Positions 2,532 to 40,387 are shown, counted from the stretch's first letter. The stretch: DNA of 64,000 nt from an uncultured Candidatus Binatia bacterium (GCA_965213675.1 OZ243916.1:3424001-3488000), one strand, 5' to 3'. Numbers and translations: made by a program. Notes: a model not told the origin generated them from the sequence alone.

Positions 2532-3539
2532 TTACTGCGCCACCTTCACGTCCTCCTGTTTGTTGCCCCGAAGGACCTTCACCGTGATCCCCGGTGGTTC
2601 CATCACCTCCGGCGGCAAGGGCGGGGGCGCTAGTGCGTGGGGTTGGAGCGCGGTAGGAGCTGGAGTCATGGCGGGAACCGGCGCTGACGTTGTGCTTGGG
2701 GTCCCGTCGGGTACCGGTATCGGCTCGGGTTCCGGCGGCGTCGGCAGCAGGTTCTCGAAGGCGGTGGGCGTGCGGTTCTCGCGTCGCCGGACGTCCGTAA
2801 GGGATCGCATGGCCAGCGAGATGGTGCCCTTGTTCTTGGCCAGGATCAGGCGCTCGGCGTCCGGCGGCGGCAGTTCGAGTGTCACCGTGCTGGCGGCGTT
2901 TCGAGAAAATCTTCCTCCGATCCCGCTTCCGCTGCCGCTCACACTGCTCTCCACCTGACGGTTGACGGCCACGACGCGGATGTACTCCAGGATCGTGGCG
3001 GTCACGGTATTGGTCCCGCGCCCGTCGCGCCCGTCGAGTTGCGCCGTCAGGATCACGTCGACATGGTCGCCAGGATAGATCAAGGCCGCTTCGCTGGTGG
3101 CCGCGTCCACCCGGATGGTCACGGCGCGGTGGTCTGGCTTGAGAGCCGCGGCCAGGAAGCCGTGATCCCCCGGGCGCACGATGGCCGACCAGTTCAGCGG
3201 CATCCCCTTGAACACTGCCCGGCGCACCACCGAACCGATCACGTCGGCTTCGTTGGTCTTGCCTTGGAGCATGTGCGTCGACAGCACCGAGCCGTCGCGG
3301 ACCGGTTTCCACGCGAGGTCGCCGGTGGTGATCAACCTGCCGATATTGAGGTCGTTGGCCGCGGTCAATACCACGGGCACGGGTTTCGGCGGCGGCTCCG
3401 GCTTCGGCGGGGGCGGTGCGGGTTCCGGGCGCAGGTACAGCCAACCACCCCCCAAGGTGGCGACCACGGAGACGATGCCCAGGACAAGGAAAAGCATCGC
3501 GGAGCGCGAACTTTTTGCCAAGCGGGATCTCTGCATCAC
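2532..3539 (-). CDS. cpaB: Flp pilus assembly protein CpaB/RcpC
   Basis: N-terminal TM, SAF-like region, RAVTIRVD...IYPGDHVDVILT motif, Pro-rich tail. Confidence 0.88.
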   Translation of the reverse strand: MMQRSRLAKSSRSAMLFLVLGIVSVVATLGGGWLYLRPEPAPPPPKPEPPPKPVPVVLTAANDLNIGRLITTGDLAWKPVRDGSVLSTHMLQGKTNEADVIGSVVRRAVFKGMPLNWSAIVRPGDHGFLAAALKPDHRAVTIRVDAATSEAALIYPGDHVDVILTAQLDGRDGRGTNTVTATILEYIRVVAVNRQVESSVSGSGSGIGGRFSRNAASTVTLELPPPDAERLILAKNKGTISLAMRSLTDVRRRENRTPTAFENLLPTPPEPEPIPVPDGTPSTTSAPVPAMTPAPTALQPHALAPPPLPPEVMEPPGITVKVLRGNKQEDVKVAQ

Positions 3540-3548
3540 AGGCTCCCT

Positions 3549-4013
3549 TCAACTGTTCCCGGTGACGGGAAAGGCTTGCAGCACCGGGACCAGCATGGCT
3601 GGCGGCGCGATGGCCACCGCAAATGGAATGTTGTTGCGCAGCCGGCGCGTTGCGTCGAAAGGAAGCAGGCAGACGAGGCCGATGGCCAGACCCAGCAAAC
3701 CCACGCCGAACAGGAAGGTGCTGAGGCCGGCCGGTCCGATCCACAGCGCCGCCACGGCCATGAGCTTGCCGTCCCCGGCCCCCAGCGCGCCCATCAGGAA
3801 CAATCCGAAACCCACCCCGAAGAGCACCCCCCCCGTGACGAAGTGTGACCACAGCGGCATCATCCCGTGATGGCCCACCACCCCGAGCTGGACCAGGAAC
3901 AGTCCGAGAATGGCCAGCGGAATCAGGTTCGGGACTTCGCGGCTGCGCAAGTCGAATACCATCGCCGCGCCCATCAGCCCGCAATAGCCCGTCAGCAGCA
4001 ACAGTTCAGGCAC
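3549..4013 (-). CDS. cpaA: Prepilin peptidase CpaA/TadV (A24 family)
   Basis: DLRSREVPN and GAGDGKL aspartate motifs, hydrophobic, IPFAVAI C-terminus. Confidence 0.88.
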   Translation of the reverse strand: MPELLLLTGYCGLMGAAMVFDLRSREVPNLIPLAILGLFLVQLGVVGHHGMMPLWSHFVTGGVLFGVGFGLFLMGALGAGDGKLMAVAALWIGPAGLSTFLFGVGLLGLAIGLVCLLPFDATRRLRNNIPFAVAIAPPAMLVPVLQAFPVTGNS

Positions 4014-4062
4014 GGGAACCCCTTCTTCGTCTCACGATGTCTCATGATATTCCTGGTGTACC

Positions 4063-4084
4063 GTCACATGAGGCCTCATGTGAC
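4063..4084. promoter_or_regulatory. Perfect 22-bp palindrome upstream of cpaA (candidate operator)
   Basis: GTCACATGAGGCCTCATGTGAC is its own reverse complement and lies about 50 bp before the cpaA start. Confidence 0.45.
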
Positions 4085-4129
4085 AGGATTGATAGGATAC
4101 GGGTGTGGGCAGGTCTTCGCGCCGGAGCA

Positions 4130-6145
4130 CTATGGCCGGACAAAGCACTCCCGGCCGCGGCCCTTCAACGTACCACACACACGTCCCGCCTCGGTGACGT
4201 CCGGGAATGGCCCCGCGAAGAGTCGATAGAAAACCTGTTTGGGGATCTGGACCTTCACCACCCGTGGAGCCAGCGAGCCGAGCAGGTCCGTCTCGCCCCT
4301 GGACAGCCTCTTCCAAGCCGCCAGCGCCGCGGCCCGTGAGTTCGCCGCGTGAAGTTGCACCAGAACTCCCGCGCCTGAGGCCTTCTTCCCGGCTGCCACT
4401 TCAACCGCACCCGCCCCGCCGCTTCCGGCCCAGTTCTCCAGCGGAACGAAGCATTCCCGGCCGCGCCCCTTCAACAGCCGGCACAGGCGCTTGGCCGCGG
4501 CCTTGTTCGCCAGCGGACCCGCGCGAAGCCGGTAGAACACGCCCTTTCCGGGAATCCGGTTCTTCACCACGTCCGGGTTCAACGATCCGAGCAGGTCCTT
4601 CTCCGCCGCGAACAGCCGTCCCCAAGCCGCCAGCACCCCCGCCTCCGTACGCGCCGCGTAGATCTGCACCTGGGCGCCCGGCGCCGCGGAAGCCACGGCC
4701 GAACCCGCCGTCGCCGCTGGAACGGATGGCGTCTCCGAACCGGAAGTTGCCACCGAACCGGAAGCTGCCGCTACGTCCGAAGCCGCGGCCGAATCAGAAC
4801 TGCCTGCTGCATCCGATGTTGCTACGGACTCCGAAGCCGCCACCGCACCGGAACCCGCGGCCGAGTCGGGTGTGGCCGCTGCACCCGATGCCGCCCCTGG
4901 AGCCGAACTCGCTGCCTGGTCCGCGATTCCCGGTGGAGTCGGTTCAGCCGCGGTGCCGGAACCCGCCGCGGGATCCGAAGCTGCCACTTGGCCCGCCACA
5001 TCGGCTGGAGCCGAAACTGCCCCGGAACCGTGAGTTGCCGTTGGGTCCGATGCCGCTTCCCGCTGCGATGTCGTTCCCAGCCCGGCCGTGGCGGGCTTGC
5101 CCGAAAGCGCCGCCGGGTCTGCCTCACGGCCCGACTCCGTTGCCGCCCCCGCGGCCCCCGCCGTCTCGCCCCCCGAAGCCGTTTCGGAAGCGGAAGCCGT
5201 TTCGGGAGCCGAAGCCATTGCGTCGACGGAACCAGCCTCCACCGAAGTGCTCGCCACCCGGTCGCCGTCCTTGACTGGCGGCTCCCGGATCACCGTCGGG
5301 CCAAGGTCTTCCTCGACGATTCGCGCCGATGTATCGCCCGGCCCGTCGTCTTCCGCCTGCCCCGTCACCGGCCCTTGACCTTCCACGGCCAACGCGGTCT
5401 GCTCCGACCCCGATCCTGCCGCGCCTCCGCTCGAAGCCACCACCGGCTGTTCTGCCTCTTGGCCTTCTTCCAGCAGCTTCGACAGGTCGGCGGCGTCGTT
5501 GCCCAGCCAGTGGGATGCGGAGTGTCTGGCGTACAGCCGTCGCGCCTCTGCCGTCTCACCGGATTGCGCGAGTGCGCGGATCAGGTTGGCCGCGATCATC
5601 GGGTGCGACGACGACAGCCTGTCGGCTTCTTCGTAGTGCTTCCGCGCCAGTGCGTGGTCGCCTTCCAGTGTTGCCACCACGCCGAGTCCGTTGGCCACCC
5701 AGGCGGCCGCCGGCGTGTCCTTGGCCAGTTCGGACGCGGCGACGAACTCCTTCTTGGCCCCGGCCACATCGTCTTGGCCCAAGTTGGCCCGGCCCGCGCC
5801 CAGCAGTGCCGCGGCCTTGCTGCCCGGGGTGGTCGAGCGCTCTTCCGCCTCGGCGAACAGCTTGCCGGCGAGATTGAAGTCGCCGCTTCTCATGGCCAGG
5901 TATCCGAGCCCGAGTCTGGGCTCCGCGGCGTTGGGGTAGTGGCGGGAGAGTTCCCGGTACAGTCGTTCCGCGGCTGCGAACTGCCCCGCGTCAGCCGATG
6001 CGGAGGCCACGTTCAGACTGCTCTTCAACTGCTGCTGCTCTGCGGCGTCGAGTCGTTCCGGATTCTTGAAGAACGCGCAGCCGCTGGCGCCTAGGGACAG
6101 TGCTAGTCCCAGCGCCAGCATGCACGACTTCCAGAAGAACCTCAT
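4130..6145 (-). CDS. TPR lipoprotein (TadD-like) with long Ala/Ser linker and two C-terminal SPOR domains
   Basis: Lipobox LGASGC; TPR-type helices; two copies of VQ(I/L)xA...AW..L...LLGSL...(G/Q)VFYRL.AGP...C..LKGRGRECFV. Confidence 0.75.
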   Translation of the reverse strand: MRFFWKSCMLALGLALSLGASGCAFFKNPERLDAAEQQQLKSSLNVASASADAGQFAAAERLYRELSRHYPNAAEPRLGLGYLAMRSGDFNLAGKLFAEAEERSTTPGSKAAALLGAGRANLGQDDVAGAKKEFVAASELAKDTPAAAWVANGLGVVATLEGDHALARKHYEEADRLSSSHPMIAANLIRALAQSGETAEARRLYARHSASHWLGNDAADLSKLLEEGQEAEQPVVASSGGAAGSGSEQTALAVEGQGPVTGQAEDDGPGDTSARIVEEDLGPTVIREPPVKDGDRVASTSVEAGSVDAMASAPETASASETASGGETAGAAGAATESGREADPAALSGKPATAGLGTTSQREAASDPTATHGSGAVSAPADVAGQVAASDPAAGSGTAAEPTPPGIADQAASSAPGAASGAAATPDSAAGSGAVAASESVATSDAAGSSDSAAASDVAAASGSVATSGSETPSVPAATAGSAVASAAPGAQVQIYAARTEAGVLAAWGRLFAAEKDLLGSLNPDVVKNRIPGKGVFYRLRAGPLANKAAAKRLCRLLKGRGRECFVPLENWAGSGGAGAVEVAAGKKASGAGVLVQLHAANSRAAALAAWKRLSRGETDLLGSLAPRVVKVQIPKQVFYRLFAGPFPDVTEAGRVCGTLKGRGRECFVRP

Positions 6146-36044: not shown

Positions 36045-36710
36045 TCAAACCTGGATCCGCGGGCGCGGCGGCGGTGCGCGTCTGGCGAGCGAGCGGATAC
36101 CGGCTTCTTCGGTGACGGCGTACCAGAACCGTTCGCCGTCCAGAGCCATGCACGCGGGTCGGAAGGGAACCACCCGGCGTTCCATGACCTGCTCGCGCGC
36201 CGGGTCGAAGCGTAGAAACGCGTAGACGGCCTGGCGCTCATCGCTCCAGTCGCCGAGGGGGCCGGGGTCGCACTCGGCGCACCAAATCTCGTCGCCGAAC
36301 GAAGTAGGGCTGTAGACCTGATGCTCCATGCGGATGGTCCAAAGGTTCCGTCCGCTCTCGGGGTCGATGCAGAAGAGCTTGCGGTTGCGCCGGTGGGTCA
36401 GCCACAGCTTGCCGTTCAGCACCGTGGCGCCGGACGCGGCGCCGTCGGGACAATCGAAGCGGCGCACCACGCGATTCGTTTCGCGGGACCAGAGCAGCAG
36501 TTGCTGTCCCAACCTGCCGCCGCCGGTGATGAGCCACAGGCCTTCGCTGCACGGACAGGCGTGGCGGACTCCAGGGAGCGAGAGAACCTCCTCGCACGAT
36601 TCACTGGCGGGATCGTAAGCCAACACGACGGACTCGTCGGCCGACGCAAGCCACAGGCGCCCCGAGTGCCACTGCATGTCCGTTACGGAGATTGACCGGA
36701 TGTCGATCAT
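36045..36710 (-). CDS. Hypothetical beta-propeller-like protein
   Basis: Repeated G-x-LW...YDP/IDP/FDP blade-like motifs. Confidence 0.6.
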   Translation of the reverse strand: MIDIRSISVTDMQWHSGRLWLASADESVVLAYDPASESCEEVLSLPGVRHACPCSEGLWLITGGGRLGQQLLLWSRETNRVVRRFDCPDGAASGATVLNGKLWLTHRRNRKLFCIDPESGRNLWTIRMEHQVYSPTSFGDEIWCAECDPGPLGDWSDERQAVYAFLRFDPAREQVMERRVVPFRPACMALDGERFWYAVTEEAGIRSLARRAPPPRPRIQV

Positions 36711-36782
36711 GGGCGTGAGGCGGTGGGCGGCGATTTCCTCTGGTCTCCCGAAAGCCCCGAACTACGCCGAGTTGTGCCCCGT

Positions 36783-38642
36783 CTATTGCGAGGGATGATG
36801 CGCGCTCGACGTATTCGTCGTCTCGACGGTATTCATGAACGGCGGCGTTCGCGGAGTCTCGCCCCCAATAAGCAAGCGAATGTCCGCCAAATCTTTGACG
36901 AATACGTCCGCACTCACCCGATAGTAGCGCCAGCAACTGAACTCGTGCGCCCAGCGCGTTGCATGGATGGCGTGCTCTGCCTTGTCAACGTATTGGGCCG
37001 CTTCGGGTTCGTGACCTGTAGCCCAGTAAGCGATCGCCATGCACTGATAGAAGTTGGCACCCTTGTCTGAGTTCACGCCCGACCGGTCCAGCTCAACCAC
37101 ACGTGCAAACGTTGGTTCTTGTACCTCCCCGCTTTTACCCCATGAGGCCATCCCATAGTTGAAAGCGTCCTGGATCGTCATTTCATCCACCGGTTTGCCA
37201 TCGGCCCGAAGTACCCTCACAGCATCGGAGAATCTGCCGGTGCCGATATGGCACAGGATCAACTGTTGCCGTGCCTGCTCGCGCCGGGTCGGGGAAAGTT
37301 CTTCGCAATCGATGAGCCGTTCCCATATTGGGATTGCGATGCGCATGGTCCCGAAAGAACGGTCCAGACCGTCCGCAAGCCATATCTGGTCGTGCGGTTC
37401 CAGCGATGTTACCGCGACCGCGTGGGCCACTCGTTCCGGTTCTTGTGACCTTATCCGCGATAGGGCCTCCCGTACCATGGGGGGAGGAAGATTCGGAAAT
37501 TGAAGGACTTCCAAGGCGTCCTGCTCCGCGCCGCCGGCGTCGTTGCATTGCGCGCGACTCCGCGACCTTTGCAGAAATACTTCCGGCTTGGCATATCCTG
37601 CTGCGATTGCGCGTGACGCGATTGCGCTGGCCCAAGCTGTTTCGCCGTCGCGTTCGCGGATCTCCGCAAGCCGGTACAGGACCTCGCCGTCGGTCGGATG
37701 CGCCTTCTCGATCTTGTCGAGCATCGCATCTCTTGCCTGTATGGACTCGCCCCGGATTCGCAGTCTGCCCGTGGCTCGGCTTATGTAGCCCAATGCGCCG
37801 TCGCGGTCATCCGGGTTGAGTCGGGAAAGTTCGCGGACCAACTCTACGTATTCCTGCGCGAGGCGGCTTCTGGGGCGATCCTTCGTAAACACGACTTGGT
37901 TCAGCAACGAAAGGCTGTCGTATCTGTGAATCATCAGCAGCTCACGCTGGAAGCCGAGCTGGCTTTGGAACGCCTTGATCTTTTCGTCGAGAATGCTGTC
38001 CTCGTCGTCCAAATCCGGGACATTGGACATGACGAAATGGAGTTCGATGTCCTTGTTACGTGGTTCGTCGCTTTCGCTGCGAATCTCCCGGACCACCCGC
38101 GTCAGTCCACGCAGGTTTTGTTCGTTCGGAAAGAACAGAATCACTACCGCGTCCGGAAGTTGACGGGTGCAAATGCCGCCGACGTCGGTGTGTCCGGTGC
38201 GCGAGTCGATCAGCACGTAGTCGGGGTTGATGGTTTGCCTCCATTGCTCCTTGAGATCCTCGAACAGCAGGTAGCCGTCGCGTTCCGCATAGAGTGCGCC
38301 CCAGTCGATCTGACTGAGTCGTTGCGCGTATGTCGCGTGCCGGCCGGAGGGCATGATCCACAATCTGCCTCCGGTGTCACCGAAATCGGCCGGTGTCTCG
38401 CTGACAAAACGAGCGGCGTCTGGAGCTTGGCCCGAATCCAGGTATTCGCTGACGAAGTCAACCATTCCTGGAACCGGATCCCGTGGTGTCGTGACGTCGA
38501 AGGTGTCAAGTCCGGGAGCTTCCAGGTCGAAATCCACGACAAGTACGCCGCGTCCCCGGTTGGCCAGTTCCACGGCCACGTTCACCAAGGCCATGGAGCG
38601 GCCGACGCCACCCTTGAAGGAGTAGAAGGCTGTTATGTACAT
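36783..38642 (-). CDS. KGGVGR-motif ParA/MinD-type ATPase fused to helical (TPR-like) repeats
   Basis: FYSFKGGVGRS, VDFDLEAPG, YVLIDSRTG, PNEQNL; helical C-terminal half. Confidence 0.85.
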   Translation of the reverse strand: MYITAFYSFKGGVGRSMALVNVAVELANRGRGVLVVDFDLEAPGLDTFDVTTPRDPVPGMVDFVSEYLDSGQAPDAARFVSETPADFGDTGGRLWIMPSGRHATYAQRLSQIDWGALYAERDGYLLFEDLKEQWRQTINPDYVLIDSRTGHTDVGGICTRQLPDAVVILFFPNEQNLRGLTRVVREIRSESDEPRNKDIELHFVMSNVPDLDDEDSILDEKIKAFQSQLGFQRELLMIHRYDSLSLLNQVVFTKDRPRSRLAQEYVELVRELSRLNPDDRDGALGYISRATGRLRIRGESIQARDAMLDKIEKAHPTDGEVLYRLAEIRERDGETAWASAIASRAIAAGYAKPEVFLQRSRSRAQCNDAGGAEQDALEVLQFPNLPPPMVREALSRIRSQEPERVAHAVAVTSLEPHDQIWLADGLDRSFGTMRIAIPIWERLIDCEELSPTRREQARQQLILCHIGTGRFSDAVRVLRADGKPVDEMTIQDAFNYGMASWGKSGEVQEPTFARVVELDRSGVNSDKGANFYQCMAIAYWATGHEPEAAQYVDKAEHAIHATRWAHEFSCWRYYRVSADVFVKDLADIRLLIGGETPRTPPFMNTVETTNTSSAHHPSQ

Positions 38643-38646
38643 GGCG

Positions 38647-39210
38647 TCAGGCCGCCATACGTAACCTGAAGTTCTCCTGGTCGCTGCGCACCTTGTCGGA
38701 GACCTTCAACGCCCGAAACGGTTGTTCACCAGTGATTGGCGTCGCTCCCGTCGCAGACTTCTCAGGCTTGATGATATCCATGAGGCGTTGCAGCGTCCCT
38801 GGCAATGCCAGTAGCCGGAGGTACCTGTCGTATGCGTGGGTCTGGATGTTGATGCCCTTTTCCCATCGATTCAGCGACGCTTCTCCGATCCCCGTGATCG
38901 CGGCAAACTTTGTGCGCGTCATGCCGAGGTCCTCCCTGATGCGACGAATCTCACGCGGGGCGAGCACGCCGAAGTGTCTGCAGACGGCCTCGTGCTGCCG
39001 GTCTTCGGCAACCTCGTCCAGATAGTCGTAGTCGCAAGGTGTACAGCGGCGCACCGGCAGTTCCACGGTCAACTCAATCGCCGACTCCCCCGTCCCATAG
39101 TCGAATGTGTGGCTGTGCATGGTGGTGGCGACAGTGTCTCGTCCGCACAGTGGACACTGGAGACCGCGCTGGGCGGGTTCTCTCGGCGTCGTCTTCTGTT
39201 CCGAATCCAT
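38647..39210 (-). CDS. MqsA-like antitoxin (zinc ribbon + XRE HTH) with C-terminal extension
   Basis: CPLC...CTPC, then EIRRIREDLGMTRTKFAAITGIGEASLNRWEKG. Confidence 0.85.
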   Translation of the reverse strand: MDSEQKTTPREPAQRGLQCPLCGRDTVATTMHSHTFDYGTGESAIELTVELPVRRCTPCDYDYLDEVAEDRQHEAVCRHFGVLAPREIRRIREDLGMTRTKFAAITGIGEASLNRWEKGINIQTHAYDRYLRLLALPGTLQRLMDIIKPEKSATGATPITGEQPFRALKVSDKVRSDQENFRLRMAA

Positions 39211-39221
39211 TCCAAGTTCCC

Positions 39222-39578
39222 TCAATCGTTCGGTTCCGAGTAGTGAAAGCTGCGTCCAATGATCCACCCGGATCCCAGCTGAAGCTTGATGTAGAGTTTG
39301 GTTTGCCCCGGTTCCAGATCGACCAACATGACGTAGCCCGTTGCTCCGGGCGGTTTGTCCAATCTGATTGCTTCCAGAGGATGACCCTCCTCAAGTTTGG
39401 AGGCAATCAGGTCCCATGCGGCGGAGTCTGAAAAGTGCGTGTCCAGTAAACCGTTTGGGTTGCGGACCTGTCGAGGTCGCCAGTCTGTTGGGCGGCTGAG
39501 GTTGAAGTCCATGCGACGGGCGTCCTTTCGCCTGGCAAGCACGACCAATGCATGCCGTGTTGCCGCGTCTACAGGCAA
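39222..39578 (-). CDS. Putative MqsR/RelE-superfamily toxin
   Basis: 118 aa upstream of the antitoxin; LYIKLQL...IIGRSFH C-terminus typical of MqsR-like toxins; GGAGAG RBS, TTG start. Confidence 0.68.
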   Translation of the reverse strand: MPVDAATRHALVVLARRKDARRMDFNLSRPTDWRPRQVRNPNGLLDTHFSDSAAWDLIASKLEEGHPLEAIRLDKPPGATGYVMLVDLEPGQTKLYIKLQLGSGWIIGRSFHYSEPND

Positions 39579-39617
39579 AGGTCTCTCCGAGAAGTCGCGA
39601 AGAAACCGTTGGCGGCA

Positions 39618-39668
39618 ATCATATGATCGATATCCTTGTTTATCAAGGGTAGTAGTCGATCATTTGAT
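39618..39668 (-). promoter_or_regulatory. sigma70 promoter of the toxin operon embedded in a long palindrome
   Basis: Minus strand TTGATA-N17-TATGAT (39646-39618); IR ATCATATGATCGA...TCGATCATTTGAT with inner CCTTG/CAAGG. Confidence 0.72.
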
Positions 39669-40151
39669 AGTCCGTGTGCTGACCGGTACACGTGTTGCCG
39701 CTTTGCGGTCTGGATCGTCGTCGCTGGAACCCCATGGGTCGTAACTGCCGAAGTTCCACAGGTTGCCTTCGGGGTCGCGGCAGGAGTAGAGGCGGCCGCC
39801 GTAATGCTGGTCCTCGGGGGGCATCACGATCCGCGCGCCGGCGGCAAGCGCCCGGGAGTGGTGTGCGTCAACGTCGGAGACGATGACGTAGGGGCTTTGC
39901 GATACCGGGCCGCCAGAGTCGGTCAACGGCCGCTGTATGACTCCGAAGTCGTCGTCTCTGGCCGACCCCAGCATGACCATGCCGTTGCCGAAGACGAGCT
40001 GGGCATGGTCGATGGCGCCGTCCTTGCCGGGGATGACCCGATGGCGCTCAAAGCCGAACGCCCTGCATAGCCACTCGATGGCCGCGGCCGCGTCGCGGTA
40101 GCGGATGGTGGGAATCAGGGTGCTCTTCGTGTCCTTCGCGAGCGTGTTCAT
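39660..40151 (-). CDS. VOC/glyoxalase family protein
   Basis: YRDAAAAIEWLCRAFGF, HAQLVFGNGMVMLGS, DPEGNLWNFGSY. Confidence 0.9.
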   Translation of the reverse strand: MNTLAKDTKSTLIPTIRYRDAAAAIEWLCRAFGFERHRVIPGKDGAIDHAQLVFGNGMVMLGSARDDDFGVIQRPLTDSGGPVSQSPYVIVSDVDAHHSRALAAGARIVMPPEDQHYGGRLYSCRDPEGNLWNFGSYDPWGSSDDDPDRKAATRVPVSTRTIK

Positions 40152-40387
40152 GGGTGCAGTGTTCCACATCGGGTGGGTTCCGCCAAGGTGGTCCGGAACC
40201 GGGAGACGCCGCGGCAACCGGGGTTTGACTCGCCATGCGGCCTGCGTTATCAACGGGCGCATTCGCAGTGTCTGACAGTGGCGGAAGCGGTTTCGGGTCC
40301 TGGCGCGCGTCCCGATTCTTATGCGTCGTGCCCTGGTCATGCCTTGTTTCGCCATGGAGTTGCGTCAACCAGATTCGTAGTTTCGTC

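Follow-up and report, generated by a model that had tools for sequence, protein, structure and literature searches.

A stretch of 64,000 nt from the genome of an uncultured Candidatus Binatia bacterium (GCA_965213675.1 OZ243916.1:3424001-3488000), referred to here as the window, contains on its minus strand a compact three-gene locus (36783-39668) that is probably a toxin-antitoxin (TA) pair placed under the control of an NTPase switch. Specifically, the genes encode, in order, a toxin-like protein whose model has an MqsR fold, an antitoxin of the MqsA family, and a ParA-type NTPase that carries an Arg in its P-loop and continues into a C-terminal array of helical repeats; we consider it probable that together they form a TA-ParA system in which the toxin is of the RNase type and the NTPase with its repeats is the sensor switch that controls it. 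TA-ParA ternary systems have been predicted computationally (Li, Burroughs and Aravind, bioRxiv 10.64898/2026.10.19.760177, 22 Oct 2026). The locus is a member of this predicted class as the main text of the preprint sets it out: every class feature that we tested is present here, and none contradicts the assignment.

In that main text, a TA-ParA system consists of a type II TA pair and a ParA protein fused to a C-terminal sensor, 'most commonly TPRs', and two hallmarks are given for ConB2 ParA proteins: an Arg in place of the second Lys of Walker A (KGGxGR[ST]) and a PG motif downstream of the sensor-1 DxD. Its toxin subtype (iii) comprises BECR RNases 'such as MqsR-MqsA', and gene order is conserved. 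In the accompanying model, a ParA switch reorganises the TA complex and the toxin is unleashed; an immune role is also predicted (10.64898/2026.10.19.760177). The locus in the window is like these systems in the Arg15 of its Walker A motif, in the PG that follows D37-F-D39, in its helical-repeat C-terminus, and in being a conserved operon with a type II TA pair. A first-pass annotation, made from the sequence of the window, had proposed an undescribed tripartite system and had named a match to a described system as grounds for giving that claim up; because the preprint describes the class in silico, with MqsR-MqsA toxins and TPR sensors among its members, the word 'undescribed' falls. The NTP-dependent sensor logic proposed in the same annotation is the model that the preprint gives for TA-ParA. 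Beyond what the preprint’s main text contains are the added C-terminal tail of the antitoxin and its predicted docking on the ParA domain, the pair of ATCAWATGAT boxes, the lack of a Pfam match in the toxin, and the pattern of decay.

The three open reading frames (ORFs) lie head to tail. The toxin-like gene (39222..39578, minus strand) encodes 118 amino acids from a TTG at 39578; the antitoxin gene (38647..39210, minus strand) encodes 187 amino acids from an ATG at 39210, within an ORF that in full extends over 38647-39267; and the ATPase gene (36783..38642, minus strand) encodes 619 amino acids. Only 11 nt (39211-39221) separate toxin and antitoxin, and 4 nt (38643-38646) separate antitoxin and ATPase. 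The GC content of 36783-39668 is 0.586, compared with 0.654 across the remainder of the window. The first-pass annotation had reported this tight packing, the less GC-rich segment, and a third gene encoding a 619-aa ATPase and not a SecB-like chaperone; the coordinates and the composition are as it described, and the third protein is indeed a ParA-type NTPase.

In the ATPase, residues 1 to about 285 (37788..38642, minus strand) form a ParA/MinD-type NTPase domain: NCBIfam NF047398 ('KGGVGR-motif variant AAA ATPase') matches residues 2-187 at 175.9 bits (cutoff 90), as expected from the KGGVGR ParA/MinD label it had been given, and Pfam AAA_31 and CbiA are just over their cutoffs. The AlphaFold2 model of the protein (predicted local distance difference test, pLDDT, 87.3) has an N-terminal Soj/ParA/MinD fold, and its top Foldseek match is 8jml_B (E 2.4e-7, TM on target 0.75). 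The Walker A motif, KGGVGRS, occupies residues 10-16, with Arg15 replacing the P-loop Lys, and Walker B is found at D141...D146. In an alignment of 50 sequences, the positions K10, G11, G12, V13, G14, D37, F38, D39, E41, A42, P43 and G44 are all invariant, and conservation of R15 is at least 90%.

The remainder of the ATPase is a presumed sensor. It comprises residues 286-619 and the stop codon (36783..37787, minus strand), and in the model residues about 260-600 are all-helical repeats. The protein had been expected to end in TPRs; helical repeats are what the model shows, but the Pfam TPR_19, TPR_14 and TPR_2 matches are all below cutoff. Among named Atlas clusters, those closest to residues 286-619 all belong to TPR families (0.90-0.91), which we take as leads only, and it is likely that the repeats are TPRs. 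Mean pairwise identity is 0.367 in this C-terminal half versus 0.668 in residues 1-285; such faster evolution is what would be expected of a sensor surface.

The antitoxin belongs to the MqsA family, as had been suggested: it passes the cutoffs of both TIGR03830 (65.6 bits; cutoff 61.8) and Pfam MqsA_antitoxin PF15731 (33.8 bits; cutoff 30). Like other family members it has an N-terminal zinc ribbon with two CxxC motifs followed by an XRE-type helix-turn-helix (HTH), and the zinc-ribbon cysteines C19, C22, C56 and C59 occur without exception in 63 sequences. A profile of these 63 sequences aligns to E. coli MqsA in hhalign with a probability of 86.6 and an E value of 4.4e-6, residues 18-140 being matched to residues 2-127 of the 131 in E. 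coli MqsA. Because this alignment ends at residue 140, residues 141-187 (38650..38790, minus strand) are an addition, absent from E. coli MqsA. This C-terminal tail consists of a variable linker and then a conserved motif, F165 ... F181, L183, and it is predicted to be a ParA-docking peptide.

For the toxin gene, the first-pass annotation had taken ATG 39512 as the start, giving a 96-aa form. This start is ruled out by a conserved N-terminal helix ('D..TRxQLxxLARR') that lies upstream of the ATG and is kept in relatives, and by database homologues that are called at about 116-119 aa; the start is instead TTG 39578, with GGAGAG ahead of it. The 118-aa form has no match in Pfam (E <= 0.1) or PADLOC, and the 96-aa form, the only one scanned against NCBIfam, has none there. 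A homologue search returned 176 proteins at E <= 0.001; among the 120 matches listed of these 176, none carries a Pfam domain, and those few with a name are called hypothetical proteins.

At the level of structure, the toxin can be placed. Its AlphaFold2 model, built from a 55-sequence alignment, has a pLDDT of 94.1, and among 48,161 chains compared with VIA-align its closest structure is E. coli MqsR, 3hi2_D (Z 9.2, root-mean-square deviation 2.6, 88/91 aligned); the next-best structures are the RelE, YoeB and HigB toxins at Z 4.5-5.1, within the same RelE/BECR superfamily. Foldseek against the PDB returned nothing at E <= 0.001. The toxin profile searched against PDB sequences did not find MqsR, and its best hit, a CRISPR-associated protein at E 0.27, is not meaningful. 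One Atlas cluster at 0.90 carries PF15723 in 17% of its members, a lead only. Because the family searches and Foldseek are empty and VIA-align puts 3hi2_D first, the modelled toxin is MqsR-like at the level of fold only; the earlier label of an MqsR-like toxin therefore stands for the fold but not for the sequence. Catalysis by MqsR requires Lys56 and Tyr81 (PMC9636575). The toxin family has an invariant Tyr and Lys in 'LYVKLQL' (Y95 and K97 in the numbering of the toxin alignment), and the sole segment that hhalign aligns, 11 columns and not significant, pairs this with 'VYLKITV' of MqsR.

To place the locus among its relatives, we used a scan with the ATPase in which each species was represented by one genome; it gave 67 loci bearing seven phylum labels, as assigned by the submitters. 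Antitoxin and toxin were also found by tblastn in 66 of the 67, the sole exception (L067) being a fragmentary match, and they nearly always lie directly upstream of the ATPase in the same order. The first-pass annotation had staked its proposal on co-occurrence of the ATPase with the TA pair, and this is borne out. The spacing between antitoxin and ATPase is at most 20 nt in 59/65 loci, given heuristic choices of start codon. Pairwise-identity matrices for the 42 loci represented in all three alignments give a Mantel rho of 0.79 for each protein pair, and none of 500 permutations was as high. The three genes thus co-evolve as one block. In a FastTree phylogeny of 50 ATPases, the 7 phylum labels change 11 times, against a minimum of 6 and a mean of 25.3 for shuffled labels; therefore, the block is passed on vertically inside groups and has, in addition, crossed between phyla. 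The GC content of the module is below that of its flanks in 52/53 loci. Most loci are chromosomal, at differing sites and in single copy.

A few arrangements depart from this pattern. The only toxin sequence found in L012 is a fragment (2928-3080), 1.3 kb further upstream; in L038, an insertion of about 1.37 kb (3627-5001) separates antitoxin from ATPase and the toxin has an internal stop; and L058 is rearranged.

The module is also found outside chromosomes. Full-length relatives (35-39% identity) are present on five plasmid records, and the complete trio is carried by plasmid unnamed2 of Massilia forsythiae GN2-R2 and by pRphaN831c of Rhizobium phaseoli N831; near the trio, the Massilia plasmid encodes a replication initiator of its own. 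In these two loci the toxin-family ORF lies upstream of an annotated MqsA gene, at 2060-2392 in L085 (Massilia forsythiae) and 2124-2468 in L086 (Rhizobium phaseoli), and both ORFs are missing from the gene table of the plasmid collection, which is incomplete. The ATPase had no match in 50,697 phage records, a result that says nothing either way about defence.

The region upstream of the operon (39618..39668, minus strand) contains a promoter and a probable operator. A promoter scan found TTGATA-17-TATGAT at 39646..39618 on the minus strand, with the -35 element TTGATA at 39646..39641, the -10 element TATGAT at 39623..39618, and 10/12 matches, in keeping with the near-consensus sigma70 promoter reported before; there are 2 promoter-like sites in 36400-40000, versus 0.9 +/- 0.9 in shuffled sequence. 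This promoter had been described as buried in a 51-bp palindrome. An inverted repeat does span 51 bp, with 13-nt arms (39618-39630 and 39656-39668) that are 92% complementary, but it is described better by two distinct 10-bp palindromes, boxes of sequence ATCAWATGAT at 39618-39627 and 39659-39668, 41 bp apart. The first box overlaps the -10 element and the second lies upstream of the -35 element. We count the promoter, with its scan score of 10/12, and both boxes as perfect matches, and the 64-kb window contains no other box with up to one mismatch.

The boxes recur across the family. We took a census, again allowing at most one mismatch, of 55 upstream regions: one from the window and 54 from loci in which the toxin is intact, with 13 of the 67 loci left out. 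At least one box is present upstream of the operon in 53/55 regions and at least two in 39/55, and the spacing is 40-42 bp for 26 of the 41 adjacent pairs; as a background, 713.5 kb from other parts of these loci contain 27 boxes. Such a conserved pair fits autorepression by a dimeric HTH antitoxin that would bind the boxes, a suggestion that comes from the sequence pattern.

How might the NTPase communicate with the TA pair? We predicted the complex of ATPase and antitoxin, each with its own alignment, in three runs with three controls. The score was 0.65 (runs of 0.65, 0.65 and 0.66), and the best of the three controls scored 0.01; a mark of 0.65 is met by 58/80 solved complexes and by 2/110 mismatched pairs, a yardstick that is rough since custom alignments were used here. 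The runs share at least 56% of their contacts, and the pLDDT of the partner is at least 72. On the antitoxin, the interface consists of residues 164-168, 170, 174, 176-178, 180-181 and 183-185; on the ATPase, it consists of residues 71-76, 114-136, 153-161 and 186-195. The first-pass annotation had recommended predicting this complex. A contact is indeed predicted, but it places the antitoxin tail on the ParA domain, beside the stretch after Walker B, and not on the repeats where it had been expected. By hand count, invariant or nearly invariant residues make up 15 of the 27 on the ATPase side of the interface, versus about 135/285 in the ParA domain as a whole, which is no real enrichment.

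These observations suggest how the system could work. At rest, the N-terminal zinc domain of the antitoxin would neutralise the toxin, an antitoxin dimer bound to the two ATCAWATGAT boxes would repress the operon, and the antitoxin would be tethered to the ParA domain of the ATPase by its extra C-terminal tail. When the repeat domain meets a signal, presumably from a phage or another invader, the nucleotide or dimer state of ParA would change, and the switched ParA domain would either pull on the antitoxin or release it. The toxin, once freed, would cut RNA, and the infected cell would stop growing. Of these elements, the content and order of the genes, their conservation as one block, the fold of the toxin and the conserved boxes come from the present analysis; the contact of tail and ParA is a model's prediction, and toxicity, RNase activity, repression, sensing, the direction of the switch and an anti-phage role are inferences. 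We also put forward, tentatively and as something that may well prove wrong, a more specific version. Here the tail would be a ParA-engaging peptide, like the terminal peptides of ParB, ParG and MinE, that docks beside the switch region, and the ATPase would use ATP to act as an 'antitoxin extractor': once the repeats bind their ligand, ParA would dimerise, and this would pull MqsA off the toxin and off both operators, so that the RNase is freed and the operon de-repressed in one step. If true, this would be a mechanistic rule coupling sensing to toxin release across the TA-ParA class, and it is absent from the main text of the preprint.

Comparison with better-known systems shows which parts of the locus are familiar. 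E. coli MqsR-MqsA (PDB 3HI2) likewise has the toxin gene first, an antitoxin with a zinc ribbon and an HTH, the same toxin fold and palindromes at its promoter. Unlike E. coli MqsR, the toxin here has an extra N-terminal helix and no sequence match to MqsR (Pfam PF15723); the antitoxin is extended by a tail of about 47 residues; and there is a third gene. The ATCAWATGAT box differs from the palindrome of E. coli MqsA. In toxin-antitoxin-chaperone (TAC) systems, including those of the MqsRA type, the third gene is SecB-like, and a C-terminal extension of the antitoxin is thought to be held by the third component. The locus shares with these its three genes and an antitoxin with a C-terminal extension, a likeness that is one of analogy and not a family match: the third gene here encodes a ParA-type NTPase with repeats and not a SecB-like chaperone, and no SecB family is among the Pfam or NCBIfam matches of the locus proteins. 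Unlike the ParABS or type I partition systems, the ParA protein here has MqsA-family and MqsR-fold partners, and neither partner matches a ParB family in Pfam or NCBIfam.

A comparison with PADLOC, which the first-pass annotation had also advised, gave a partial answer. The ParA domain matches PDC-M28B (E 5.1e-33) over residues 4-218, corresponding to model positions 131-349 of 438, but component A had no match, and neither toxin nor antitoxin matches any PDC-M28 component. A literature search found no paper bearing the name PDC-M28.

The fate of the module within the genus is informative. An ATPase match is present in 11/24 congeners and absent in 13/24, and in 4 of the 11 that match, the ATPase ends at about 280-290 residues; among other genomes of the same order, 1/16 has a weak ATPase match. 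Five ATPase-less congeners were examined at the syntenic site: three have antitoxin relics, one has nothing recognisable, and one is rearranged. One relic extends over residues 1-160 and is frameshifted; the other two cover residues 1-70 and 120-137. Across the family, the toxin is apparently disrupted in 11/66 loci and the antitoxin in about 4/66; these counts come from assemblies of uncultured organisms, and some of the breaks may be errors. Loss of the toxin ahead of the antitoxin is the order to be expected if the toxin is genuine. A recent insertion into the window genome is ruled out by the presence of the module or its relics at the same site, with the same neighbours, in congeners. Because the truncated lineage has the module beside the same neighbour gene, the module is old at this site.

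Two sets of loci illustrate this decay. ATPases without repeats (5001 to about 5855) are found in L051, L052, L054, L056, L057 and L059, and also in G003, G004, G013 and G021; most of this lineage shares the window’s neighbour gene, and every member has kept a complete antitoxin, tail included. The toxin of this lineage is broken in L051, L054 and L056 and apparently intact in L052, L057 and L059. The antitoxin relics are at 7496-7980 in L079, 7647-7850 in L080 and 2166-2219 in L081, between beta-propeller-like and coxM-like genes.

Several of our results weigh against a TA-ParA defence switch. The frequent decay shows that the system is often dispensable. The toxin’s 55-sequence profile aligns to E. 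coli MqsR with an hhalign probability of 0.5, that is, with no sequence-level link, and we identified in the toxin only a candidate for the equivalent of Tyr81 of MqsR and none for Lys56. An Arg in the position of the P-loop Lys may mean that hydrolysis is weak or does not occur. The complex score is a measure of model confidence, and it could be an echo of known ParA-peptide complexes. The surroundings of the locus in the window are transport and metabolic genes and not a defence island, and a scan of flanking genes against PADLOC (229 ORFs in 58 loci, taken as greedy longest-ORF picks and not as gene calls) found few defence genes, among them a type I restriction-modification system, a CBASS cyclase with E1-E2, and a prokaryotic Argonaute with SIR2; we claim no enrichment. 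Finally, our literature search found no experimental study of the TA-ParA class, only the computational preprint.

Some of these features would also fit a selfish cassette. If the locus were a chaperone-type addiction module resembling TAC, the ATPase-repeat protein would hold the tail and thereby stabilise the antitoxin or shield it from proteolysis, the trio would serve mainly to stabilise the DNA that bears it, and no dedicated sensing of invaders would be involved; the conserved added tail, predicted to bind the third component as the chaperone-addiction tail of TAC does, would then have a ready explanation, as would the occurrence of the trio on plasmids, its GC content below that of the flanks, and a window that is not a defence island. 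We nevertheless regard such a module as unlikely. An NTPase switch and a fast-evolving repeat half would be needless for a simple holdase, and in other settings this ParA clade is reported to be joined to SAVED, NACHT and TIR modules, of a kind typically found in immune sensors (10.64898/2026.10.19.760177). Moreover, the TA pair with an intact tail persists in L052, L057 and L059, where the repeat half has been lost, so retention of the pair does not depend on the repeats. The decay seen among congeners raises a separate question, namely whether the copy in the window, acquired long ago, is itself now inert or in decay and no longer has a function. Thirteen of 24 congeners without an ATPase match, four more with a truncated one, antitoxin relics in three of five ATPase-less congeners, and disrupted toxins in 11 of 66 loci all point in that direction, yet the three frames in the window are intact and its promoter and both boxes are perfect matches. 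The window proteins also keep all invariant residues of the three families, which follows from the window sequence being the reference row of the three alignments. We judge it improbable that the window’s copy is dead.

The architecture can also be compared with type Ib partition, which it resembles in combining a ParA NTPase with a DNA-binding partner whose flexible terminal peptide is predicted to contact the NTPase close to the stretch after Walker B, and in having repeated palindromic sites upstream that overlap the promoter. A partition-like or otherwise regulatory system of this sort, in which the MqsA-type protein would be a ParG- or ParB-like adaptor on the boxes and its tail would stimulate the ParA NTPase so as to position or regulate DNA or the operon, without any control of cell death, would suit a trio that is carried by plasmids. 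It would leave unexplained the gene for an MqsR-fold toxin within the conserved block and the 330-residue repeat domain that the ParA protein carries; moreover, most loci are chromosomal, at varied sites and in single copy, and although the Massilia plasmid has a replication initiator nearby, nothing ties the trio to partition. Its ParA also falls in the Arg-P-loop clade that has been placed in conflict contexts (10.64898/2026.10.19.760177). We consider a role of this kind very improbable, and continue to favour a TA-ParA system in which the NTPase controls the toxin.

As a TA-ParA system, the locus would exemplify a newly predicted way to place a TA pair under the control of an NTPase sensor. 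It is a clean, intact example, with a defined operator, a short tail as the predicted link between antitoxin and NTPase, and natural variants in the form of repeat-less ATPases, toxin-first decay and relics. New here are the candidate physical link between tail and ParA, the conserved operator, the movement and decay of the three genes as a unit, and the cultured hosts. The last of these has a practical consequence: with the trio on plasmids of cultured and harmless bacteria, Massilia forsythiae GN2-R2 and Rhizobium phaseoli N831, the predictions can be tested at the bench without synthesising the genes of an uncultured organism.

In one Binatia-labelled subgroup, an ORF of about 1,140 aa lies 3′ of the ATPase on the same strand (L013 6795-10229, L014 6891-10301, L039 6891-10286, L045 6223-9669, L064 6240-9674). 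In two of these loci, L045 and L064, the ATPase is about 410 aa long and has a different C-terminus. The ORF may be a further component or a mere neighbour.

In the window, the neighbours of the locus are ABC-transporter permeases, a beta-propeller-like protein, a glyoxalase-family protein and a CoxMSL-type dehydrogenase. The glyoxalase-family ORF (39660-40355, minus strand; Pfam Glyoxalase, 50.8 bits) is directly upstream of the operon promoter. In all five congeners examined, residues of this ORF encoded by 39660-40130 gave no tblastn match at the syntenic site, and the ORF may be a second variable gene at the same spot. On the other side of the locus, 36045-36710 (minus strand) encodes a 221-aa protein with sub-threshold PQQ_2 and SGL beta-propeller matches, and this protein is found at 70-81% identity in all five examined congeners.

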